In this document: piece by piece, positions 7,696 through 23,600 of the stretch
Layout of the letters: each line of letters opens with the position of its first letter
How positions within the stretch are numbered: the first letter of the stretch is position 1
Source: Candidatus Yonathbacteria bacterium
GTDB lineage: Bacteria; Patescibacteriota; Minisyncoccia; Phycocordibacterales; UBA1550
Length of the DNA stretch: 64,000 nucleotides
NCBI GenBank assembly: GCA_016215205.1
Contig: JACRKU010000013.1
Span: 29,016-93,015, forward strand
Direction of reading: 5' to 3'
Made by a program: the position numbers and the translations under genes
The notes under the pieces: generated by a model
The model's database searches: none
The model's input: the letters and a program-made list of their open reading frames with translations, nothing else
What the model was told of the DNA's origin: nothing

Positions 7696-8892
7696 ATGGC
7701 ATTTTCTTTTTTTACTAATCGCGGAAATGATGAAACGCTGATCCTCCTTGTTGATATCGGGTCAGCGAGCGTGGGCGGCGCTCTTGTAAAGATTGAAAAA
7801 GGTCGCGCGCCGAATGTTCTTGCAACAGTTCGCAAAGACATCTCATTCCAAGAAGCGCTTTCTTCCGCTCGTTTCTTATCTGCAATGAATCACGCGCTCG
7901 ACCAAGTTTTAAAAACTATCCACCCAAAAACTACCGTCTTAGGTTCTCCCGCGCATATTTTTTGCACGCTTTCGTCCCCTTGGTTTATTTTAAAGACTCG
8001 CCGTTTATTGATTTCACGTCAAGAAGAATTTGAAGTAACCGAACGAGCTCTTGATGAATTTATAAGTGAAGACATCGCGCGTCTGAAAGAAGAACTCAAA
8101 GAAACGCTTCCGCCGAAGGATGTGAAAATCATCGAAAAGAAAATCATTCAGATGAAATTGAATGGATATGAGATCAAAAATCCATACGGCCAAAAAACGT
8201 CACAAATGGAGATTTTGATGACCATCGGGGTTTCGTCCGAAAAGGTTATTGAAAGCATCGAGCGTAAGCTCGGCAATGTTTTTCACGCAAAATCAGTCCA
8301 CTTCGGCGCATTTCCCATTGCCGCATTTAGCGCAGTAAGGGATATTTCCCCAACCGAAAAGAATTTCCTTTTTCTCGACATCACTGGCGAGGCGACCGAT
8401 GTATCACTGGTAAACAATGATCTTTTAATGGGGACGGTGACATTCCCCCATGGAAAAAATTTTTTTATTCGCGAAATTTCTGCGGAGATGCGCACTGTCC
8501 ACTTTGAGGCGGCAACGCTCTTTGCAATGTTTCTCCGTGATGAGTTGGATGACACAAAACGCGCCAGGATTGCGGCTATTATTGCGCGCGCTGAAGACGA
8601 ATGGCTTGCGCGCCTCGAAAAGTCGCTTGGTGCCCTTGCGAAGAACGGTGTATTGCCTCAGAAGGTATTTTTTACAACAGATGCTTTTATCGCTCCACTG
8701 TTTTCTTTGCTCCTCTCTCGCCGAGACCATATCGCAAAGATGGAGCACGGAACGAACGCATCGTTTGAGGCTCAGTATCTCGACCAGCTTATTGTTGAAA
8801 AGTTTGTTTCGTTCAATACGGGAGTTATTAGGGATCCGTTTATGGTCATTGAAGCGCTCCTAGCTTTCAAAATAGTCACGCAACACAAATAA
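7696..8892 (+). CDS. Actin-fold ATPase-like protein (FtsA/PilM/Ppx-GppA superfamily), hypothetical
   Basis: Two phosphate-binding-like motifs LLVDIGSASVGGALV and FLFLDITGEATDVSLV typical of ASKHA/actin-like ATPases; no family-specific motif recognised. Confidence 0.5.
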   Translation: MAFSFFTNRGNDETLILLVDIGSASVGGALVKIEKGRAPNVLATVRKDISFQEALSSARFLSAMNHALDQVLKTIHPKTTVLGSPAHIFCTLSSPWFILKTRRLLISRQEEFEVTERALDEFISEDIARLKEELKETLPPKDVKIIEKKIIQMKLNGYEIKNPYGQKTSQMEILMTIGVSSEKVIESIERKLGNVFHAKSVHFGAFPIAAFSAVRDISPTEKNFLFLDITGEATDVSLVNNDLLMGTVTFPHGKNFFIREISAEMRTVHFEAATLFAMFLRDELDDTKRARIAAIIARAEDEWLARLEKSLGALAKNGVLPQKVFFTTDAFIAPLFSLLLSRRDHIAKMEHGTNASFEAQYLDQLIVEKFVSFNTGVIRDPFMVIEALLAFKIVTQHK

Positions 8893-8893
8893 T

Positions 8894-10240
8894 ATGAATG
8901 ACATTATCCGAAAACAAATGAAAGATGTGATTGTTCCTCATAACGAGGTTATTCGTCGAGTGCCAACCGTACCCGAACCGTACGCCGCGCCAAAGCCTTC
9001 AGAAGAAATGGGGCGCATCGAAAAAAATCCATTTTTCAAAAAGGAGAGAAAAAAAGATGACGAACCACCAAAAGGCAAAAGCGCGCGTTCCCACGCGCTT
9101 ACTTGGGCGTTTCTGGCAGTCGCACTTTTGGTCGCAGTTTTTGTTGTCGCAAACTATTTTTCATCGGCGACGGTAGAAATCACGCCTATCACGCGAAGTA
9201 TAAATCTAGACCGTGATTTTACAGCGGTTTCGTCCGACAAAGCGGTGGAAGGCGATCTCATTTTTCATTTTGTTGCAACTTCCACGGAAAAAATAAAAGA
9301 GGTCCCCGCAACGGTCGAAAAGAAGATTCAAAAAAAAGCGTCAGGGAAAGTAACAATTTTCAACTCCTATAATGGAGAAAGTCAGCGTCTCATCAAAAAC
9401 ACGCGCCTCGAGTCTCCCGGTCGCAAAACATATCGCATCGACCAGTCGGTGATTGTGCCAGGGATGAAGGTCGTCAATGGCAAAAATATGCCCGGCTCTG
9501 TTGAGGCGGTCGTCTATGCCGATGCTCCCGGTCCGGATTATAATATTGATAAACCTGCCGATTTTACAATCCCCGGGTTTAATGGTGACCCCCGATATAC
9601 GAAGTTTTACGCACGCTCAAAACCGGATTCTCCTATCACGGGCGGTTTTTCCGGAACCGTGAATATTCCCTCGGACGAAGCAATCCTACTTGCGCAAGAA
9701 GAATTGAAGCAAGAGCTCCCTAAAATCGCGATTGAAAAAGCGCGCGCGCAGATTCCCGACGGAATGTCGTTGTTTCCCGGAGGTGTGATAATAAAATTTG
9801 AAGATGTGCCGCAGGACATAACCTTAGGCACGCTGTCAAAGGTTGTCGTGCGCGCCACGGCATCGGTATTTTTCTTTGATACGACTGTTCTCACAGAGAA
9901 ACTTGCAGCCGCATTATTGTCCGAAGACAAAGGAAAAACATTCGTAGTCTCTAATATGTCCGCTCTCGCATTCTCATTCGTTGACCCCGTGAACAACGTA
10001 GTTCTCTCTGACCTCTCAAAGATAAGTTTTCATATCAAGGGGGACTTGGTGTTTGTGGGGCAGATTGATGCCACAAAAATCCGCGCGGAACTCGCGGGCA
10101 AAGAAAAAAAAGATTTTGGCAAACTTATCGTCGGAGAGAATAGTATCGGCAAGGCGGATGTTGTTATTCGTCCAATGTGGAAAACTGCCTTTCCTAAAGA
10201 CCCCACAAAGATTACAATAAAAATTGTTAGCGGGGAATAG
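8894..10240 (+). CDS. Bitopic membrane protein with ~360-aa extracytoplasmic domain, hypothetical
   Basis: Translationally coupled to upstream gene (TAA-T-ATG); charged N-terminus, single TM (LTWAFLAVALLVAVFVVANYF), large C-terminal domain without recognised motifs. Confidence 0.5.
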   Translation: MNDIIRKQMKDVIVPHNEVIRRVPTVPEPYAAPKPSEEMGRIEKNPFFKKERKKDDEPPKGKSARSHALTWAFLAVALLVAVFVVANYFSSATVEITPITRSINLDRDFTAVSSDKAVEGDLIFHFVATSTEKIKEVPATVEKKIQKKASGKVTIFNSYNGESQRLIKNTRLESPGRKTYRIDQSVIVPGMKVVNGKNMPGSVEAVVYADAPGPDYNIDKPADFTIPGFNGDPRYTKFYARSKPDSPITGGFSGTVNIPSDEAILLAQEELKQELPKIAIEKARAQIPDGMSLFPGGVIIKFEDVPQDITLGTLSKVVVRATASVFFFDTTVLTEKLAAALLSEDKGKTFVVSNMSALAFSFVDPVNNVVLSDLSKISFHIKGDLVFVGQIDATKIRAELAGKEKKDFGKLIVGENSIGKADVVIRPMWKTAFPKDPTKITIKIVSGE

Positions 10241-10246
10241 TTGTAA

Positions 10247-10275
10247 TTGACGCCACACTAAACTTTTGGTATCAT
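10247..10275 (+). promoter_or_regulatory. Putative sigma70 promoter upstream of infA
   Basis: TTGACG -35, 17-nt spacer, TATCAT -10, 12 nt before ATG 10288. Confidence 0.5.
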
Positions 10276-10287
10276 GAAGATTCACAA

Positions 10288-10503
10288 ATGGCAGAAATAG
10301 AAAAAGAGGAGCTAACACAAGGGGAGGTTACCGAAGCGCTTCCGGGCGCAATGTTTCGCGTAGAGTTTCCGGACGGGCAAGTTGTCATATCCTATCTCGC
10401 GGGCAAGATGCGTCTGCACCGCATCAAGGTCCTCATCGGGGATAAGGTTATGGTAAAGCTTGATCCGTATGGCGGAAAAGGCCGTATTATCAAGCGACTA
10501 TAG
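10288..10503 (+). CDS. infA: Translation initiation factor IF-1
   Basis: GEVTEALPGAMFRVEFPDGQVVISYLAGKMRLHRIKVLIGDKVMVKLDPYGGKGRIIKR matches IF-1 S1-like fold. Confidence 0.9.
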   Translation: MAEIEKEELTQGEVTEALPGAMFRVEFPDGQVVISYLAGKMRLHRIKVLIGDKVMVKLDPYGGKGRIIKRL

Positions 10504-10596
10504 AGGGCTTGCATTTAATTCCAAAATACGATATAGTACCCTCACTGTTTTGTTTTTGTGGTTTTGTTTGTGTTTTCGTAGGTTTGCGCGAAATTT

Positions 10597-10655
10597 ACTC
10601 TATTGCCGCCTACTTAAAAAGGTAGGTATCAATAGAGAGTTTTTGTTCAATTTTT
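10597..10655 (+). terminator. Putative terminator / structured element between infA and rpmJ
   Basis: Imperfect long hairpin ctctattgccgcctactt...aggtaggtatcaatagagag followed by TTTTTGTTCAATTTTTGTTT. Confidence 0.4.
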
Positions 10656-10688
10656 GTTTAAATAGTAGTGGATACCAATATCTTTAGT

Positions 10689-17287: not shown

Positions 17288-18337
17288 ATGGCAAAAGACT
17301 ACTACAAAACACTCGGTGTTGAAAAAAACGCCTCTCAAGACGAAATTAAAAAAGCGTTTCGTACTCTTGCGCACAAATATCATCCCGACAAGGGCGGTGA
17401 TGAGAAAAAGTTCAAAGAGGCAAGCGAAGCGTATCAAGTGCTTTCAGACGAAAAGAAACGCTCCGAATATGACACCTATGGTTCGGCGGGTCCGGGGCGA
17501 GGCAATGGCTTCGGGCAGGGCGGTTTTGACTCGTCTGGTTTCCAAGGGTTTGAAGGTGTGGACATAAACGACATCTTCGGAGATTTTTTTGGCGGTGGCC
17601 GCCGAGAACAGGTGCATCGCGGTCGCGACATTTCTGTTGACATTGAAATATCATTTTCGGAGGCTGTTTTTGGCGTGGAACACAAAGTTCGCATCACAAA
17701 AACCTCTTCTTGCGATACATGTCATGGCAGTGGCGCCAAACCGGGTACCAAAACAAAAGAGTGCGCAAAATGCAAGGGTAAGGGGCGCACACAGGAGTCC
17801 GTTAGGACAATTCTTGGTACATTTGCGCAAGAGCGCGAATGCAGTGCTTGTCACGGCTCCGGAAAAATTCCCGAAGAAAAATGCACCGCTTGCAAAGGCG
17901 CAGGTGTGGCGCGAAAAGAAGAGCAAATTACGATTCGCGTACCCGCAGGTATTCAAAATGGCGAGCAAGTGCGACTCACTGGCGCGGGTGAGGCAATACA
18001 GAACGGCAAGACAGGGGATTTGTATGTGCGTATTCATGTTGCTCCGCACAAAGTTTTCAGGCGCGAGGGTTACAACCTTGTGATGGCGCTCAGTGTGAAG
18101 CTCACCGACGCAATTCTCGGCGCCGAGTACCCCATACAGACTCTCGACGGAGAAATTAAATTAAAAATTCCGAGAGGTGTTTCGTCAGGCGAGGTTTTGC
18201 GCGTGCGCGAAAAAGGTGTACCCGTGGATAGCAAGCGCCGCGGCGATTTACTTATCAAGCTCGACATCAAAAATCCCGCAAAACTTTCCCGCACCGCCGA
18301 AAAACTCATCGAAGACCTTCGCAAAGAGGGGATTTAA
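17288..18337 (+). CDS. dnaJ: Chaperone DnaJ
   Basis: J-domain (DYYKTLGV...HPDK), G/F region, four CxxCxGxG zinc-finger repeats. Confidence 0.9.
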
Positions 18338-18536
18338 ATTTGCGAGATTATGTTTGCAAATTTCTTGAATACAATGCATAGTTTTTGCAGAGATGCTAAT
18401 GGCCAAATGCCGAGATTCCCTCGGCAACAAGAGCATCCTTTGTGAAGAGGAGTGCAAAATGAATATGTTTCTGCGCGTTGGCCCGGGTGATCCGGGCGAT
18501 CCGCCCTGCGACGGCGCTTAAACCACGCCCTCCATA

Positions 18537-18575
18537 ATCCCCCCGCTTCCTGTAAAGCGGGGGGATCTTTATGTT
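18537..18575 (+). terminator. Rho-independent terminator
   Basis: atccccccgctt / aagcggggggat 12-bp stem, loop cctgt, then CTTTATGTT. Confidence 0.6.
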
Positions 18576-18592
18576 AAGATGTCTAAGATTAC

Positions 18593-20035
18593 ATGAACTT
18601 TCTAAAAACAAAACGAGAAGAAACAAGAGAAGATATTTTTGGTATTAAAGTTGCAGACCCGTACCGCTGGCTTGAAGATGTAAAAAATCCAGAGGTTAAA
18701 GAGTGGATTGATGCACAAAATACTCACACCGATAATACTCTTCGAAATGAAACATTTGAGACTTTTTCTCGTGAGCTTGTGAAAAATTTTAAAGTCACTA
18801 CTTTTTCAAATCCTGTCCCAATTAAAGGGAGATACTTTTACTATGAGCGACAGCCAGATGAAGACCAAGATGCTTTTTATATGAAAATTGGTATAGACGG
18901 CGAACCCATAAAGCTTGTTGACCCGAACGGCATGAATTATGGTAATACAGTTTCTCTGGATTTTTGTTTTCCGTCTCGGACGGGAAAATATCTCGCATAC
19001 GGTCTTTCTCAAAGGGGGGGGGATGAAATGCCAACTATACATATTAAGGACACTGGCACAAACAAAGACCTTGGTTACAAAATCCCTCGTTGTAAAACTG
19101 CTAATGTAAGATGGCTCCCGGATGACTCAGGTTTTTTCTATAAACGAAACCACGCTGTTGGTGATGTTCCGCAAAACGAAGAGCATCTGCATACGAAAGT
19201 ATATTTTCATAAACTTGGCGATGATCCAATGCCGGATGACTATGCAGTCAAACAAGAATGGTATACATCAAAAGATAGCACACGCGTTCCAATGTTCATT
19301 TTTCATCGCAAGGATATCGCCCATGACGTGGCGCATCCTACCATTCTTTATGGGTATGGTGGTTTTGGAAGAGTTGAAAGCCCCAATTTTAAAAGAGGTT
19401 TTGTGCCATGGATAGAGCGTGGAGGTATTTTTGCAGTAGTGAATATCCGTGGTGGCGGTGAGTTTGGCGAGGTCTGGCACAATAGAGCTACTAAAGAAAA
19501 AAAGCAAAACAGTTTTGACGATTTTATTTCTGCAGGAGAATATTTAGTAGAACAAGGATATACTAGCGCGGAGCATCTAGGAATTTTTGGGGGAAGTAAT
19601 GGCGGACTCCTTGTGTCCGCAGTAGCAGTCCAAAGGCCAGATTTATTTAAGGCGGTGTGCTCCCGCGTACCACTCACTGATATGGCGCGTTTTCCGAAGT
19701 TCGGTATGGCTTTACGCTGGGTTCACGAATACGGTAATCCCGAAAATGAAGTGGATTTGAAAAATATATTAAAATGGAGTCCTTATCACAATGTAAAAGA
19801 GGGAACAGAATACCCAGCCTTTTTGTTTACCACTGCGGAGAAAGATGCGCGTGTCGACCCGCTTCATGCGCGCAAAATGGCCGCGATACTTCAGTCGGTG
19901 AACAAGAAAAACGAGATTTTTCTTTTTACGGAAAAAGAAGCGGGACATGGAAAAGGTAAACCTATTAAAAAAATTGTGGAAAGCCAAGCTCTAACGTTGG
20001 CATTCTTTGTTAAGAAATTAGGACTACGCATCTAG
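18593..20035 (+). CDS. S9-family serine peptidase (prolyl oligopeptidase-like) with strongly reduced beta-propeller
   Basis: N-terminal DPYRWLED POP hallmark; catalytic GGSNGGLL nucleophile elbow and downstream Asp/His region; only 480 aa vs ~700 typical, so propeller region ~130 aa; gene is AT-rich (~38-40% GC) relative to flanks. Confidence 0.75.
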   Translation: MNFLKTKREETREDIFGIKVADPYRWLEDVKNPEVKEWIDAQNTHTDNTLRNETFETFSRELVKNFKVTTFSNPVPIKGRYFYYERQPDEDQDAFYMKIGIDGEPIKLVDPNGMNYGNTVSLDFCFPSRTGKYLAYGLSQRGGDEMPTIHIKDTGTNKDLGYKIPRCKTANVRWLPDDSGFFYKRNHAVGDVPQNEEHLHTKVYFHKLGDDPMPDDYAVKQEWYTSKDSTRVPMFIFHRKDIAHDVAHPTILYGYGGFGRVESPNFKRGFVPWIERGGIFAVVNIRGGGEFGEVWHNRATKEKKQNSFDDFISAGEYLVEQGYTSAEHLGIFGGSNGGLLVSAVAVQRPDLFKAVCSRVPLTDMARFPKFGMALRWVHEYGNPENEVDLKNILKWSPYHNVKEGTEYPAFLFTTAEKDARVDPLHARKMAAILQSVNKKNEIFLFTEKEAGHGKGKPIKKIVESQALTLAFFVKKLGLRI

Positions 20036-20100
20036 ATATTCAAATGTCCTTGGCCTATTGGATTAGCAGGACAAGGGGTTTTTGAGTTATAATCATCTCA

Positions 20101-20625
20101 ATGAACCTTACGAATAACTATAAAGGCCACGCCGGTGTCGAGTATATTTTTGAATATTCTGATGCTGATTCTTTTGATGATTTGAATTTTAATAAGTGCA
20201 CTCAAGTATACGGAGTTTGTTTTTATGGCGATAAAATTGTAATAGGCTTTGGCGGCGCAAAGAAAAGCTGGGGACTAATCGGCGGGACAATTGAAAGAGG
20301 GGAAACGTTTGCGCAAACACTTGTGAGAGAAATACAGGAAGAATCAAATATGAAAGTGATGTCATTCTTGCCAATAGGATATCAGAAAGTTATAGATACA
20401 CGCGATGATAGTTTTTACTATCAGCTTCGCTATGTTTGCCTCGTACAACCCTACGGACCTTTTGTATCTGACCCAGCTCTCTCAGTAACAGAGATAAAAT
20501 TCATAGACCCCAAAGAATACAAGCAGTATTTTGACTGGGGGAGCATAGGTGACAGAATAATAGAAAGAGCATTAGAATTAAAGCATAAACTCAATTACGT
20601 GGGACTTGACAAAAAGCTGAAATAG
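20101..20625 (+). CDS. NUDIX hydrolase
   Basis: Nudix box GGTIERGETFAQTLVREIQEESN; AT-rich like the upstream peptidase gene. Confidence 0.75.
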   Translation: MNLTNNYKGHAGVEYIFEYSDADSFDDLNFNKCTQVYGVCFYGDKIVIGFGGAKKSWGLIGGTIERGETFAQTLVREIQEESNMKVMSFLPIGYQKVIDTRDDSFYYQLRYVCLVQPYGPFVSDPALSVTEIKFIDPKEYKQYFDWGSIGDRIIERALELKHKLNYVGLDKKLK

Positions 20626-20673
20626 TGTACACTTGATATAGTAATTTCACTCACCCAAAAGGAGCTCTTTGTT

Positions 20674-21087
20674 ATGAATATGGCGATTGTGAAGCAGTAT
20701 CTGAAGAATGCTTTTCGGGTTGTAGCCGTACTGACGATTGCCGCCCTCAGTATGATTATCGGCGACAAGTTTCAGCCGGTCACCTATTTAGGACTGACTG
20801 CGGATTATCTGCATCAGACGGAGGTGAAAAAGACGGTCGTTCACAAAACGTCGCCCGTAAAGGTTGCCGATAAGGTTACCAAAAAGGGAGAGACTCAGAC
20901 GTCGCAGAAAGACGTGCTCTGGGAACATGTCGGGAAGCTCAAGGGCGAATATGTGGTGAAAGACGGAGACACGCTGTGGAACATTGCGCGAAAGCACGAT
21001 GTTTCGCCGAAGAAACTCCTTCTCGCAAACAACATGACACGCGACACCAAATTGCGCCCCGGCCAGCTGATCACAATTCCAAACTGA
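20674..21087 (+). CDS. LysM domain membrane-anchored protein
   Basis: N-terminal TM (VVAVLTIAALSMIIG), C-terminal LysM (YVVKDGDTLWNIARKHDVSPKKLLLANNMTRDTKLRPGQLITIP). Confidence 0.7.
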   Translation: MNMAIVKQYLKNAFRVVAVLTIAALSMIIGDKFQPVTYLGLTADYLHQTEVKKTVVHKTSPVKVADKVTKKGETQTSQKDVLWEHVGKLKGEYVVKDGDTLWNIARKHDVSPKKLLLANNMTRDTKLRPGQLITIPN

Positions 21088-21107
21088 TACAAGCATATGT
21101 ATTTCTT

Positions 21108-21149
21108 ATACACGGAACCGTAAGTATGGTTCCGTGTATTTTCTTTTTG
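21108..21149 (+). terminator. Rho-independent terminator
   Basis: atacacggaacc / ggttccgtgtat perfect stem then TTTCTTTTTG. Confidence 0.8.
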
Positions 21150-21267
21150 TTAAACTCTGGCAATAGACGTTTGCGTTAATGTAGATTATATGTTACGATG
21201 CAGTCAGTTTTTAAGTGTTCTTTTCAATTGGCACATCGTGCCCGTAAACTAAGGGGAGAAAGCAGTA

Positions 21268-21432
21268 ATGAATGACAATATTGACAAACACATGGAAGTA
21301 GAGGTGGGAGCGTTTTGCCCCGTTGATTTTACTCCACTTATCGGAAAGCGAGACCACTGTGGGAAACCATGCACAAACATTGGTACCTCCTCCGACCAGG
21401 ACAAGAAAAATAAAGAAGACACAATAGATTAA
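21268..21432 (+). CDS. Small hypothetical protein (54 aa, 3 Cys), below ORF-track cutoff
   Basis: AAGGGGAG RBS 8 nt upstream of ATG; translates MNDNIDKHMEVEVGAFCPVDFTPLIGKRDHCGKPCTNIGTSSDQDKKNKEDTID; own terminator at 21458. Confidence 0.35.
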   Translation: MNDNIDKHMEVEVGAFCPVDFTPLIGKRDHCGKPCTNIGTSSDQDKKNKEDTID

Positions 21433-21457
21433 TATCCTGTGTTTTCATTCATTTCAG

Positions 21458-21492
21458 CCTCGCGCATTACGATGCGCGGGGTTTTTTTTCTT
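21458..21492 (+). terminator. Rho-independent terminator
   Basis: cctcgcgcat-tacg-atgcgcgggg hairpin followed by TTTTTTTTC. Confidence 0.7.
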
Positions 21493-21559
21493 TTCTCCTT
21501 ACTATGCGTGGCGCCCTTGCGCACTTTTACAATTTGTGGAAATAGATTAAAATAAGTTT

Positions 21560-21985
21560 ATGGTAGTCAATTTGATTTTTATATCGGCAATTTTATTTTT
21601 CAGCATCTTATTTGTTCTCGGTGTTCACAAAGACATCCGAGACCGCAAGCGAGTTGAGATGCTCATAAAGAATACGAAAGTGTCGAACGAGCGTTTGCGA
21701 ACAATGGAAGGACAGAAAATGGAGTTTGCATCTATTGCAGTGCATCAGTTACGCGCGCCACTCGCGGTTATAAAAGGGTATGCCTCAATGATTCTTGAGG
21801 GGACATTTGGCGCTATTTCCGACCCTGCGCGCGACGCGGTGGAGAAGCTTTATAAATCGAGCGAAAAAGTTGTTGCATCGGTCGAGGACCTGCTTGCTCT
21901 ATCGAGTAGCGATAGAGCGGACTTCGACCAAGGCGCGTGGATGACGGATGAGCCTCAGAATACAGCAAATCGCGAAGGTTCATAA
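21560..21985 (+). CDS. Membrane-anchored histidine-kinase DHp (HisKA) domain protein lacking a catalytic ATP-binding domain
   Basis: N-terminal TM; H-box AVHQLRAPLAVIKGY aligns to SHELRTPLtsIkGY with the phospho-acceptor His present; protein ends after second DHp helix (141 aa), no N/G1/G2 boxes. Confidence 0.65.
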   Translation: MVVNLIFISAILFFSILFVLGVHKDIRDRKRVEMLIKNTKVSNERLRTMEGQKMEFASIAVHQLRAPLAVIKGYASMILEGTFGAISDPARDAVEKLYKSSEKVVASVEDLLALSSSDRADFDQGAWMTDEPQNTANREGS

Positions 21986-22036
21986 GAAGAACCTATCTAA
22001 GTGAAATTTGAGCAAAAAGAATGATATACTTATTTC

Positions 22037-23272
22037 ATGATTGGCAGCATATTTGATATTATCAACAACATCTCGCTTGCAGGATTGGGGGTTGTAATAA
22101 GCAGTTTTTTTGCAGCTCTACTTTGTGGGGTTATTTTTTGGCAAGATGTAACAAAACAGAGGAGCTTGCTCCTCTTTCTTTTTGGAATCGTTAACGCCTT
22201 GGCGGCGCTTGCTTACGCATTTTTGGGAGATTCACTGGGCACTTCTGTCGCCTATGCGGGAATGATAATGCTCTATATCGCTTCTAGTGTTGCGCCGGTG
22301 TTTCTTTTTGTAAAATATAATTTGGGGGATATTAAAATCATAGCGATTGAATTATTTATTTCAATAACAGTGCTTGTGCTCGCCGTGGAACTTTTTTTTG
22401 CGGACTCGCTTCTTGATCTGTTTATCAAAACGGGGATTACGGTTCTTGTTGTTTTTGCAAGTTCATTTTTGGTGCGGAGTGTAAAGCGCGAGATACAGTC
22501 CCAAGATCAAATTGCGTGTTTCTCGCATAACCTAGACATTACGCGCGAGCGATTGCGAATTCTCGACAAGAAAAAATCAGAGTTTATTTCCATTGTAGCG
22601 CGTGATTTACTCGGACCACTGACCGCAATAAATGGCTACGCCTCCACGCTCGCAAGAGGGTCCTTTGGCGAGCTTTCAAGACCGATACAAGAGGCAGTTG
22701 AAAAAATCTTTATCTCAAGCGGACACCTTGTTGCCGTGGTTTCTGATTTTGTGGATATTTTACGCATTGAAAGTGGAGACATGAAATACAATTTTACCGA
22801 TGTAGATATGAAGAAACTCGTACTCAGTGTAGCAAACGAGACGAAGAGGGTTGCAGACAGCGCACATTTGACATTTAACACAACAATTGATGACAGCGCG
22901 CCTCTCAGACAATTTATAACAGTGGGCGATGAAAACAAATTGCGACAAGTTATTTTGAACCTTATTGATAATTCCATAAAATATACGCCTCACGGAGAAG
23001 TTTCACTGCTCCTCCGCGAAAGTCCCGATAAGAAAAAAATTCTTTTTAGTCTGTCGGACACGGGGATAGGGATGAGTCCGTCAACGCTCGGAAAAATCTT
23101 TAGAAAATTTAGCCGTGCCGAACAGGTAAACACGGTATATACTGAAAGTATCAGTCTAGGTCTCTACGTCGCAAAAGAGATCGTGGATAAGCACGCGGGC
23201 AGGATTTGGGCGGAATCAAAGGGGGAGGGAATGGGGTCAACGTTTTTTGTAGAGCTTGCGGCAAAGCCATAA
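22037..23272 (+). CDS. Polytopic sensor histidine kinase-like protein with His-to-Arg substitution at the phospho-acceptor position
   Basis: ~5 TM helices; DHp SIVARDLLGPLTAINGY aligns to canonical H-box with R in place of H; intact HATPase_c (N-box LIDNSIKYT, G1 SDTGIGM, G2 GLGLY); DHp helices paralogous to upstream 141-aa gene (GTFGAIS.P..DAVEKLY vs GSFGELSRPIQEAVEKIF). Confidence 0.75.
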   Translation: MIGSIFDIINNISLAGLGVVISSFFAALLCGVIFWQDVTKQRSLLLFLFGIVNALAALAYAFLGDSLGTSVAYAGMIMLYIASSVAPVFLFVKYNLGDIKIIAIELFISITVLVLAVELFFADSLLDLFIKTGITVLVVFASSFLVRSVKREIQSQDQIACFSHNLDITRERLRILDKKKSEFISIVARDLLGPLTAINGYASTLARGSFGELSRPIQEAVEKIFISSGHLVAVVSDFVDILRIESGDMKYNFTDVDMKKLVLSVANETKRVADSAHLTFNTTIDDSAPLRQFITVGDENKLRQVILNLIDNSIKYTPHGEVSLLLRESPDKKKILFSLSDTGIGMSPSTLGKIFRKFSRAEQVNTVYTESISLGLYVAKEIVDKHAGRIWAESKGEGMGSTFFVELAAKP

Positions 23273-23393
23273 AAACCTTGTCAAATGGTGCTTTTTGGTG
23301 TATTGTGCGTCAGTGCTATCGTATTTTGGGAGATCGTCGTATGGTGGGAATGAAAAATGAAGCAGTTCATTTTTCATCCGGTTTCGTGAGAAA

Positions 23394-23509
23394 ATTGCCG
23401 TTGTTTTTGTTTTAAGCTGGGAGATCGTCTAATGGTAGGACAGCGGCCTTTGAAGCCGTGAATCTAAGTTCGATTCTTAGTCTCCCAGCTTAAAACAAAA
23501 ACCGGCAAT
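23394..23509. repeat. ~28-30 bp inverted repeat flanking and overlapping the tRNA-Gln gene
   Basis: attgccgttgtttttgttttaagctgggag (upstream) vs reverse complement of ctcccagcttaaaacaaaaaccggcaat (downstream): near-perfect pairing extending the acceptor stem by >20 bp. Confidence 0.55.
23418..23488 (+). tRNA. tRNA-Gln (anticodon UUG)
   Basis: Manual fold: acceptor TGGGAGA/TCTCCCA, 3-bp D-stem (Gln-like), anticodon stem GCGGC/GCCGT loop CTTTGAA (U33, UUG, A37), T-arm CTAAG-TTCGATT-CTTAG, discriminator G; D-arm closely resembles E. coli tRNA-Gln. Confidence 0.8.
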
Positions 23510-23515
23510 AGGCGA

Positions 23516-23559
23516 GCCTTTGAAGCCGTCAATCTTGGTTCGATTCCAAGCCTCCCAGC
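23516..23559 (+). repeat. Degenerate direct repeat of the 3' half of tRNA-Gln (anticodon-loop to acceptor 3' end), no 5' half
   Basis: gcctttgaagccgtcaatcttggttcgattccaagcctcccagc vs tRNA ggcctttgaagccgtgaatctaagttcgattcttagtctcccagc; T-stem changes are compensatory (CTTGG/CCAAG) but no complementary 5' acceptor strand exists upstream. Confidence 0.5.
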
Positions 23560-23600
23560 AATGAATATAAACCACCGATAGAAAGTGATAGGATTCTTTT

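Follow-up and report, generated by a model that had tools for sequence, protein, structure and literature searches.

Genes and signals downstream of dnaJ

The window, i.e., the whole stretch of 64,000 nucleotides of Candidatus Yonathbacteria DNA analysed here, carries downstream of dnaJ a truncated prolyl oligopeptidase (POP) gene, the small elements that precede it and a stand-alone NUDIX gene. These features, all on the + strand, are the following:

18337-20096 (+): segment containing the peptide ORF, the hairpin, the deleted POP gene and spacers; absent from the relatives L005-L007, intact in L124
18354-18382 (+): putative promoter of the peptide gene (-35 TTGCAA, 17-nt spacer, -10 CATAGT), its function predicted from sequence
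18459-18521 (+): unannotated small ORF, MNMFLRVGPGDPGDPPCDGA and a stop codon, preceded by a GAGGAG Shine-Dalgarno-like site
18537-18566 (+): hairpin resembling an intrinsic terminator, placed after the peptide ORF and before POP (12-bp stem with 8 G-C pairs, -23 kcal/mol); CTTTATGTT comes next
18572-18580 (+): extended -10-like element TGTTAAGAT, located 12 nt upstream of the start codon (ATG) of POP, a candidate by likeness to the consensus only
18593-20035 (+): truncated POP gene, S9A prolyl oligopeptidase of 480 aa (relatives about 677 aa) with an internal in-frame deletion
19229-19234 (+): deletion junction Met213/Pro214, with the break at nt 19231/19232 and 198 codons missing compared with every relative
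19595-19597, 19844-19846 and 19946-19948 (+): codons of the intact POP catalytic triad, Ser335, Asp418 and His452
20101-20625 (+): stand-alone NUDIX hydrolase of 174 aa, a resident gene outside the POP module

POPs cleave after proline in peptides shorter than about 30 residues, and a complete S9A propeller has about 355 aa arranged in seven blades between two hinge strands. The window protein contains the DPYRWLED N-terminal segment (residues 22-29) and an alpha/beta-hydrolase domain (Pfam PF00326, residues 266-477, 181 bits) with the GGSNGGLL elbow (residues 333-340), and S335, D418 and H452 fall in invariant alignment columns. A complete seven-bladed beta-propeller between two hinge strands is not found: PF02897 (S9 N-terminal/propeller) matches residues 6-216 over profile positions 3-219 of 414 only, and the propeller remnant comprises about 143 residues (approximately 71-213). 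The preliminary description of this DNA, which had recognised an S9A POP with a drastically shortened propeller and had estimated the remnant at about 130 residues, was thus correct on this point.

The AlphaFold2 model, built with a 120-sequence alignment (a 10-sequence run with pLDDT 50.8 was discarded), agrees with the earlier expectation that no complete propeller would be predicted, since it consists of the catalytic domain and a partial propeller with blades 1 and 2 plus three strands of the third, i.e., about 2.75 of the seven blades. Its pLDDT is 86, at least 90 in the N-terminal helices 33-50 and 53-66 and below 50 at the junction residues 207-216, and the confidence in the retained blades stems from the full-length homologs and is uninformative on stability either way. 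Foldseek aligned the model with 2BKL with a TM-score of 0.92 when normalised by the query and 0.66 when normalised by the target.

The closest known enzymes are the bacterial S9A prolyl endopeptidases, such as those of Myxococcus xanthus (2BKL) and Aeromonas punctata (3IUJ), and the mammalian PREP (1QFS/1H2W). As in the S9A enzymes, the window POP has an N-terminal hydrolase segment, a nucleophile elbow of the GGSNGG type and a triad in the order Ser-Asp-His, and its full-length homolog P0002 aligns end to end with 2BKL (E = 5e-142). In contrast to PREP, it does not have the equivalent of roughly human residues 221-429 (an estimated mapping, with domain limits from PMC5446394), so that the window protein is devoid of the fourth and last strand of blade 3, of the whole of blades 4-7 and of most of the 'hinge in' strand that returns to the catalytic domain.

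A unique in-frame deletion in the POP gene

The deletion has left a clean junction and an undisturbed reading frame (LGDDPM/PDDYAVKQ), and the 198 missing amino acids represent 594 bp. All the relatives (119/119) have 197-200 residues in the deleted region. The window protein (MBI5078035.1, from a Candidatus Yonathbacteria metagenome-assembled genome) forms a singleton cluster, and among the 120 homologs listed, hits 2-120 have 658-761 aa, mostly about 677 aa, with identities up to 83%. Full length is also found in the best 150 of 20,279 cluster representatives, except for three fragments at contig edges, and the shortened architecture recurs in neither set. A second, independent propeller deletion was found in L078, which is different from that of the window and breaks the frame, and it is counted here among the signs of decay. 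Therefore, the proposal of a distinct propeller-reduced enzyme type does not hold, since the window gene is a one-off in-frame deletion allele whose 119 listed relatives are all full length, and the alignment gave no naturally propeller-free S9 subfamily either, the architecture not being recurrent in the listed homologs.

A singleton allele in a metagenome-assembled genome, whose junction was unmatched in a degenerate search of the JGI metagenomes, might be an assembly or binning artefact, the deletion then not existing in the organism. This explanation is contradicted by the Logan contig SRR12113407_1590686 (L127; 4,267 bp), which comes from an independent assembly made with an independent assembler and is 100% identical to positions 19186-23452 of the window, junction included. 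Since this assembly gives the identical junction, the deletion is real. Moreover, a repeat collapse is unlikely, since the junction has no more than about 5-10 nt of microhomology, less than the k-mers that assemblers normally use. We consider an artefact extremely improbable; the POP deletion is unique, in frame and truly present in the reads.

Concerning its origin, the deletion may have occurred by illegitimate recombination or replication slippage, as the break falls at the short in-phase direct repeats (GAT-GAY) that the relatives carry on both sides of the missing stretch. An exact 10-nt repeat, CCGGATGACT (positions 19118 and 19232), was also considered as the deletion-flanking repeat and dropped, because its copies do not flank the deletion.

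The private changes of the window gene show an amino-acid to synonymous ratio of 24:19, as compared with two full-length relatives in which it is 8:25 and 18:30 (Fisher p = 0.013). At the 141 columns conserved in at least 95% of the sequences, the window POP has no private substitution while its relatives average 2.2, and the pairwise dN/dS of POP ranges from 0.03 to 0.16. These dN/dS values imply that either the deletion is very recent or the retained parts are still selected; they are unable to date the deletion because pairwise dS is saturated (>1 or undefined).

The deletion could have opened the active site, yielding a functional ungated peptidase that would degrade longer peptides or proteins, or would act as an esterase. 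The reading frame is kept, the triad is intact, no conserved position is changed, and the module still has its promoter-like and Shine-Dalgarno-like signals, observations that at the same time count against regarding the gene as a remnant. The parts of the propeller in contact with the active-site loops, namely blade 1, blade 2 and the region of loop A, are also still there. In PREP, the assembly of the active site is aided by the propeller, the hinges and loop A (PMC5446394). Against an ungated peptidase, a fragment of 2.75 blades would be unable to close, leaving beta-sheet edges exposed together with the hydrophobic surface between the domains. In addition, the catalytic moiety alone of an S9 acylaminoacyl peptidase was unstable and inactive (PMC3574126). 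Those Sporosarcina psychrophila variants resemble the window POP in having a catalytic moiety without a complete propeller, but they are laboratory constructs of the S9C type with the whole propeller removed, whereas the window POP results from a natural deletion and keeps the N-terminal segment and 2.75 blades. The mildly raised amino-acid to synonymous ratio on the window branch and the parallel shortening of the partner peptide gene point in the same direction, and since no protein with the same architecture was found among the 120 homologs listed or the best 150 of the 20,279 representatives, there is no sign that the truncated POP has been selected and propagated. An ungated enzyme seems to us unlikely. 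The gene is most likely a decaying remnant whose product would be unable to close its propeller and, for this reason, is probably unstable or inactive.

Base composition, synteny and the NUDIX gene

The GC content of positions 18593-20640 is 40.3% versus 46.6% for the window, the lowest value among all the 2,048-bp windows of the stretch (z = -3.6). By gene, it is 41.3% in POP and 38.3% in NUDIX, and their GC3 values (0.341 and 0.366, respectively) are the two lowest of the 53 ORFs (mean 0.480, sd 0.046). Both genes are, as it had been noticed before, compositional outliers with respect to their host.

This deviation had led to the proposal that POP and NUDIX form an AT-rich islet acquired horizontally. 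It would fit with this proposal that the nearest POP homologs are located on contigs of 38-41% GC, that at least four different genomic contexts have been found for the POP module, and that the closest syntenic relatives, L005-L007 (DnaK 96% identical), have no POP segment, dnaJ being followed by NUDIX with nothing between them. However, the NUDIX gene of these POP-free relatives is at the same position, starting 5-8 nt past the dnaJ stop codon, with 86-87% DNA identity and also 38% GC, so that only one of the two genes is missing from the site. The POP module, in turn, is found at the same post-dnaJ site in L124, a more distant relative with the order S13...GrpE-DnaK-DnaJ-peptide-POP (L124/L010; POP of 675 aa), which is collinear with the window and has a homologous dnaJ-to-peptide spacer. 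There, the next genes after the intact module are ThiF-like, PaaK-like and nitroreductase-like. The divergence between the window and L124 is 68% for POP, in agreement with the 67% for DnaJ, and the POP of L124 lies as well about 6-7 GC points below its dnaK and dnaJ. Neither flanking repeats nor a boundary tRNA were found at the borders of 18337-20096, there is no integrase gene among the ORFs adjoining this segment, and Rfam detected two tRNAs and nothing else across the window.

The synteny relations of the window, L124 and L005-L007 hold, and they do not support a transferred islet. POP and NUDIX are not one transferred unit, because NUDIX is inherited vertically and in the relatives is both syntenic and just as AT-rich; and the 1,760-bp segment 18337-20096, which was considered as a fresh insertion, was dropped as such because L124 holds this module at the corresponding site. 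A horizontal acquisition of the islet is accordingly quite improbable, and the low GC is probably usual for the accessory genes of the post-dnaJ region and no mark of recent import.

The NUDIX product contains the Nudix box GTIERGETFAQTLVREIQEESNM, which is near-canonical with one deviation (Asn for the last Gly) when compared with the consensus GX5EX7REUXEEXGU within the NUDIX fold domain, and it matches Pfam PF00293 with 33.6 bits (cutoff 21.1). It has the Nudix box and the Pfam domain in common with the Aquifex Ap4A hydrolase 3I7U, the nearest solved Nudix protein, although its similarity to characterised members is weak (E = 7e-5), and every NCBIfam match of the window NUDIX was far under its cutoff. 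Judging from the sequences, it is a separate, vertically inherited gene that is unrelated to the POP module. The previously reported NusB-NUDIX fusion is also present as a different ORF (332-1324, +) and was confirmed by Pfam, in addition to the stand-alone gene.

The peptide-POP module and its probable loss

The small ORF upstream of POP belongs to a group of ORFs located directly upstream of Patescibacteria POP genes, which encode peptides of 20-35 aa rich in Pro, Gly, Asp and Cys with the core ...CPDCPGDPGDPPCGGE. They were found in the window and in L001, L002, L008, L010/L124, L037/L099, L102 and L119. The peptide of the closest relative is MKMFLFAGPGEGYCPDCPGDPGDPPCDGG. These short ORFs are co-oriented with the protease gene and conserved as coding sequences, the pairwise codon differences in the 11-codon core being 61 synonymous versus 12 nonsynonymous. 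No Pfam or NCBIfam family matches the POP-linked peptides, and a protein-database search with a padded peptide alignment retrieved two 29-aa entries only. In the JGI metagenomes, a degenerate DNA pattern for PGDPGD[PA]PC gave 34 loci, 30 of them chance matches in GC-rich DNA and four genuine, and in these 4/4 POP lies about 100 nt downstream.

The window ORF is nine codons (approximately GYCPDCPGD) shorter than all the relatives of the CPDC type. The possibility that it is a natural short variant was dropped, as its closest homolog, P0393, has the nine missing codons between PGD/PGE repeats.

The module is organised as a promoter-like site, the peptide ORF, the terminator hairpin and POP. The dnaJ-to-peptide spacer of L124 keeps the same promoter-like element (TTGCAA-17-TATAGT). 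A hairpin of different sequence occupies the same position in seven other loci, at 13-19 nt from the peptide stop codon in 7/8 loci and at about 60 nt in L119; a sub-threshold Rfam match to RsaJ upstream of POP turned out to be merely this terminator hairpin. The relatives also have, 3' of the hairpin, TGnTAAGAT or TGTTAA elements related to the extended -10-like element of the window. An ABC exporter adjoins the module in L001, L008, L102 and L037, an AmcB-type cyclophane radical-SAM maturase gene comes directly after POP in L002, and MurA is the partner in L119. The partner genes vary by locus in the relatives, and the window contains no modifying enzyme or exporter.

The small ORF, the hairpin and POP could constitute an undescribed peptide-processing module of Patescibacteria, a suggestion that we make tentatively, and such a module might operate in two alternative ways, by peptide trimming or cyclisation or by leader-peptide control. 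In the first one, POP would trim or cyclise the co-encoded peptide in a minimal RiPP-like system, helped by the variable accessory genes (ABC exporter, ThiF/nitroreductase, cyclophane radical-SAM enzyme). Several S9 enzymes act on ribosomal peptides, either as macrocyclases (PCY1, GmPOPB and OphP) or as RiPP proteases (FlaP and WprP2). The POP module resembles these systems in that a short peptide gene, followed by a terminator hairpin, adjoins that of an S9 enzyme, and the length of the peptides (20-35 aa) fits the substrate size limit of POP. The radical-SAM maturase after POP in L002 resembles the WprB2/WprP2 arrangement (PMC12957482). In contrast to RiPP systems, the module of the window has no modifying enzyme or exporter, its peptide matched none of the described precursor families in Pfam and NCBIfam, and the cleavage of the peptide by POP is putative.

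In the second way, the Pro-rich ORF would be an arrest or leader peptide controlling POP transcription via the hairpin. Leader-peptide attenuators and arrest peptides are exemplified by the his and trp leaders and TnaC. By analogy, a short Pro-rich ORF precedes a terminator hairpin upstream of a Pro-acting enzyme; the difference is that no alternative antiterminator structure was identified and that POP is separated from the hairpin by a promoter-like element.

Considering all these data, the window contains a genuine POP gene that has lost 594 bp in this lineage, and the module to which it belongs is probably on its way out of a streamlined Patescibacteria genome. The module is seated in the variable region downstream of grpE-dnaK-dnaJ, where three stages of the loss may be represented, i.e., the intact module in L124, an intermediate in the window (POP shortened by 198 codons and the peptide by nine), and the complete loss in L005-L007. 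If the peptide and POP do work together as a module, the window would have a doubly shortened copy that records the loss of such a module.

The truncated POP by itself is of minor weight, since it is a deletion allele found in one genome and the enzyme is well known; it mainly advises caution, as a short ORF in a metagenome-assembled genome should not be taken for a new architecture. If it were active, nature would have provided a test of the propeller-gating model, although activity is disfavoured by the evidence. The locus would rather offer a three-stage snapshot, intact, partly deleted and gone, of the loss of accessory genes adjacent to the dnaK operon in streamlined CPR genomes. Peptide natural products are, to our knowledge, not something that Patescibacteria are known for. 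Of more interest as a lead is the unannotated peptide family, which is under purifying selection and tightly linked to the Patescibacteria POP genes, a linkage that could supply a defined substrate for these POPs.

A truncated prolyl oligopeptidase beside a NUDIX gene

The preliminary description had reported a low-GC stretch with a prolyl oligopeptidase (POP) gene and a NUDIX gene, as well as a second NUDIX domain fused to NusB elsewhere in the window. The GC scan, motifs and Pfam confirmed the former, and the fusion was also found. The corresponding ORFs are:

18593-20035, + strand: POP ORF, 480 aa, same orientation as NUDIX
20101-20625, + strand: NUDIX ORF, 174 aa
332-1324, + strand: NusB-NUDIX fusion, single ORF (NusB domain, residues 32-163; NUDIX domain, residues 201-315)

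The GC content of 18593-20640 is 40.3%, versus 46.6% for the window, being the minimum of all 2,048-bp windows (z = -3.6), and the GC3 values of the POP and NUDIX ORFs (0.341 and 0.366) are the two lowest among 53 long ORFs (mean 0.480, sd 0.046). The POP contains the motifs DPYRWLED (residues 22-29) and GGSNGGLL (333-340) and a Pfam Peptidase_S9 match (266-477), and the Nudix box of the neighbouring protein is near-canonical. The Pfam S9 N-terminal/propeller model was matched only at model positions 3-219 of 414.

Among 5.8 billion proteins searched, the window POP is a singleton (MBI5078035.1, on a 105,929-bp contig of a Candidatus Yonathbacteria MAG). The next 119 matches listed, all from Patescibacteria-type assemblies, are without exception POPs of 658-761 aa (mostly about 677 aa) sharing at most 83% identity with it. 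In alignments, the window POP passes cleanly from LGDDPM to PDDYAVKQ (Met213|Pro214, nt 19231/19232) across a single 198-residue gap, and the missing segment comprises 197-200 residues in all 119 listed relatives. The result was the same when 1.84 billion cluster representatives were searched exhaustively and without a profile: the best 150 of 20,279 are full length save three short entries, which were rejected as shortened POPs, since they start mid-sequence and represent fragments at contig edges. P0002, a full-length homolog, and the prolyl endopeptidase of Myxococcus xanthus (2BKL) align over their entire lengths (E = 5e-142); the family is a bona fide S9A POP.

The AlphaFold2 model of the window POP (second run, 120-sequence alignment; pLDDT 86, pTM 0.85) did not reveal a complete propeller. 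It contains the catalytic domain, blades 1 (75-109) and 2 (121-164) with four strands apiece, and a partial blade 3 ending at about residue 205, followed by a low-confidence junction chain (207-216). Its superposition on 2BKL yielded a TM-score of 0.92 by query length and 0.66 by target length, so that the model covers a subset of that fold. Given the limits of human PREP (hydrolase 1-71 and 428-710, propeller 72-427, hinge-in 424-434, loop A 189-209; PMC5446394), we estimate that the loss extends from the last strand of blade 3 through blades 4-7 to most of the return hinge. Thus, the truncated propeller of the preliminary description stands on the Pfam match, the gap and the model, but a new enzyme type does not, the listed relatives being full length: the window POP is a one-off deletion derivative and not a naturally propeller-free subfamily.

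An assembly artefact appears extremely improbable. A degenerate junction search did not recover the deletion allele from JGI metagenomes, which would favour an artefact, but the Logan contig SRR12113407_1590686 (4,267 bp), from an independent assembly, is 100% identical to window 19186-23452. It starts 46 nt left of the deletion junction and reads ...HKLGDDPMPDDYAVKQ..., so a different assembler recovered the same junction from reads. The exact window NUDIX protein also recurs in the Logan assembly. The microhomology of the relatives at the deletion point is only about 5-10 nt (GAT GAY on each side), and the k-mer sizes normal for assemblers exceed this length, making repeat collapse unlikely.

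Origin of the low-GC segment

The window segment 18337-20096 includes, in front of the POP gene, two further elements that form a module with it:

18459-18521, + strand: peptide ORF, 20 aa, Pro/Gly/Asp/Cys-rich; MNMFLRVGPGDPGDPPCDGA
18537-18566, + strand: terminator hairpin after the peptide ORF, -23 kcal/mol

The preliminary description had suggested that POP and NUDIX might form a horizontally acquired islet. The GC and GC3 minima would fit this view, as would the absence of any counterpart of 18337-20096 from the alignment of three contigs of Hainich groundwater Patescibacteria (L005-L007). These contigs are collinear with the window from S13 through RpoA, GrpE, DnaK and DnaJ at about 82-87% DNA identity (protein identity, 96% for DnaK and 87% for DnaJ). 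However, after the gap collinearity restarts at NUDIX, which starts 5-8 nt past the dnaJ stop codon and likewise has 38% GC, followed by LysM and a split histidine kinase. Since these contigs carry NUDIX in synteny at the same low GC, the gene is, from sequence comparison, resident, vertically inherited and intrinsically AT-rich, and no part of an imported block.

As for the POP segment, a fresh insertion was discarded, because the more distant isolate H41-bin181_1 (L124/L010; DnaK 84% and DnaJ 67% identical to the window) has the module at the same post-dnaJ site. There, on the same backbone, dnaJ is followed by the same spacer, the small peptide ORF, a hairpin and a full-length POP of 675 aa, and the alignment with the window is unbroken from dnaK into POP as far as the deletion point. 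POP divergence (68%) is in line with that of DnaJ (67%), the L124 POP is also about 6-7 GC points lower than its dnaK and dnaJ, and neither flanking repeats, nor an integrase, nor a boundary tRNA were found at the window POP segment. An islet bearing both genes is therefore very unlikely. The simplest history is a module ancestral at the post-dnaJ site, with a clean loss in the L005-L007 lineage and a partial deletion in that of the window. Transfer by homologous replacement may also have occurred, because the peptide-POP module occupies at least four different genomic contexts elsewhere. The window POP is a known enzyme in the form of a deletion allele from one population, neither a new enzyme type nor an imported islet, and hence its novelty is low.

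The 174-aa NUDIX protein is a member of a large family in Patescibacteria, with proteins about 165 aa long (984 matches, identity up to 92%). It is weakly similar to characterised Nudix enzymes, and is tied to POP solely by adjacency in the window genome. A paralogous NUDIX about 3 kb from POP in another relative (L008) was given no weight, because the family is so common. A TATAAT hexamer precedes the NUDIX ATG by 10 nt in the window (within 20085-20103). Since this hexamer is within a spacer unique to the window, and NUDIX abuts dnaJ directly in relatives, the window gene may have gained its own promoter and a near-leaderless transcript.

L005-L007 have an IS200/IS605-type Y1 transposase gene and a 276-aa gene inserted just past the tRNA (window 23418-23488); the 1.9-kb Y1 transposase insert (L005 14278-16166) is absent from the window at about 23532-23579. 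Between NUDIX and LysM, L005 also has two additional genes (8694-10657), one for a methyltransferase and one of 255 aa, both missing in the window (20590-20594), L006 and L007. Gene gain and loss concentrate in the whole interval between dnaJ and the histidine kinase, which is a hotspot for both. At 21560-23272 (+ strand), a 141-aa HisKA-only ORF precedes a 411-aa histidine kinase with its own HisKA, a pair kept in L005-L007.

Fate of the truncated gene

We consider it fairly probable that a real, recent deletion has left a protein without a closed propeller, probably unstable or inactive, in a module that is being lost. The deletion would have arisen where relatives have short in-phase repeats, the product would be unable to close the propeller, and the whole module would be in the course of loss from the window lineage. 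This account rests partly on the literature: in an S9 acylaminoacyl peptidase, the isolated catalytic moiety was unstable and inactive, and integrity needed interdomain contacts (PMC3574126), and in PREP, blade loops, hinges and loop A help to assemble and gate the active site (PMC5446394). The acylaminoacyl peptidase case differs in that the window POP keeps blades 1 and 2 and part of blade 3. Indeed, retention of the loop A region and of blades 1 and 2 would favour the active, ungated peptidase predicted in the preliminary description, which we nevertheless regard as unlikely.

The following observations speak for decay of the window copy. Private changes in the window POP have an amino-acid:synonymous ratio of 24:19, versus 8:25 and 18:30 in two full-length relatives (four-taxon comparison, Fisher p = 0.013). 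Relative to its closest homolog (P0393, MKMFLFAGPGEGYCPDCPGDPGDPPCDGG), the window peptide lacks 9 codons; the missing stretch lies between two PGD/PGE repeats, and with it the CPDC motif, kept in all other Cys-type members, is gone. An independent, frame-shifting deletion of the POP propeller (about residues 120-395) is found in Candidatus Paceibacteria MAG Co_metawrap_1985 (L078, 3977-5190), where an N-terminal ORF of 141 aa remains together with one of 273 aa, the start of which lies 10 codons 5' of the right-hand junction in the window; propeller loss thus recurs as a pseudogene route. Decay is contradicted by the lack of private changes in the window POP across 141 highly conserved columns (relatives' mean, 2.2), by its intact catalytic triad and by a pairwise dN/dS of 0.03-0.16, with dS saturated. 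Therefore, the deletion is recent or the remaining sequence is still constrained.

The peptide-hairpin-POP module

The unannotated small ORF is directly 5' of POP in the window and in the relatives' loci L001, L002, L008, L010/L124, L037/L099, L102 and L119. Homologous peptide ORFs of 25-35 aa, sharing the core CPDCPGDPGDPPCGGE, are found in front of POP genes in at least seven other Patescibacteria loci; examples are:

L001 peptide: MKPTRLFYTGPGDDSPSYPDPHGPDGDGSQQE
L002 peptide: MKTTYMFYADPNCPNCPDCPGDPGDPPCGDE
L037 peptide: MKLSYTDPNCPDCPGDPGDPPCGGE
L124 peptide: MNIISYAGPGEGTCPDCPGDPGDAPCDGG

The core is retained in L037 although the POPs share just 44% identity. Codon differences among five loci comprise 61 synonymous versus 12 nonsynonymous changes, and therefore the ORF is translated and subject to purifying selection. 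Scanning the DNA of JGI metagenomes for the peptide first gave four genuine copies, all with POP about 100 nt downstream; the remaining 30 matches were discarded as having arisen by chance in GC-rich DNA. In 8/8 loci, the peptide ORF is followed by a strong G+C-rich hairpin with a T-run, of locus-specific sequence, and most of them have a TGnTAAGAT-like element between hairpin and POP. The peptide matched no Pfam or NCBIfam family, and our literature search found no paper linking POP genes with Patescibacteria.

The neighbouring genes vary. A gene for an ABC exporter of the MsbA/HlyB type (about 600 aa) adjoins the peptide-POP pair in L001, L008, L102 and L037, and MurA neighbours the module in L119. 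In L124 (12091-15681), 3' of the full-length POP, a PaaK-like adenylating enzyme is flanked by a ThiF-like and a nitroreductase-like protein, which match the N- and the C-terminal half, respectively, of the Rv1355c family; this trio, absent from the window, may be a peptide-modification set. In L002 (4356-5585), the pair is directly followed by a radical-SAM enzyme scoring 435.5 bits against the NCBIfam equivalog AmcB (cutoff 425), a cyclophane-forming maturase, and then by a 45-aa ORF without family match. This arrangement resembles RiPP pathways, where S9 proteases adjacent to cyclophane radical-SAM enzymes are known (PMC12957482).

By this analogy, the module could be a small peptide-processing system. 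Alternatively, the ORF could encode a Pro-rich leader or arrest peptide working via the hairpin. The conserved peptide-hairpin-POP unit, just beyond the stretch first singled out, is the lead worth following.
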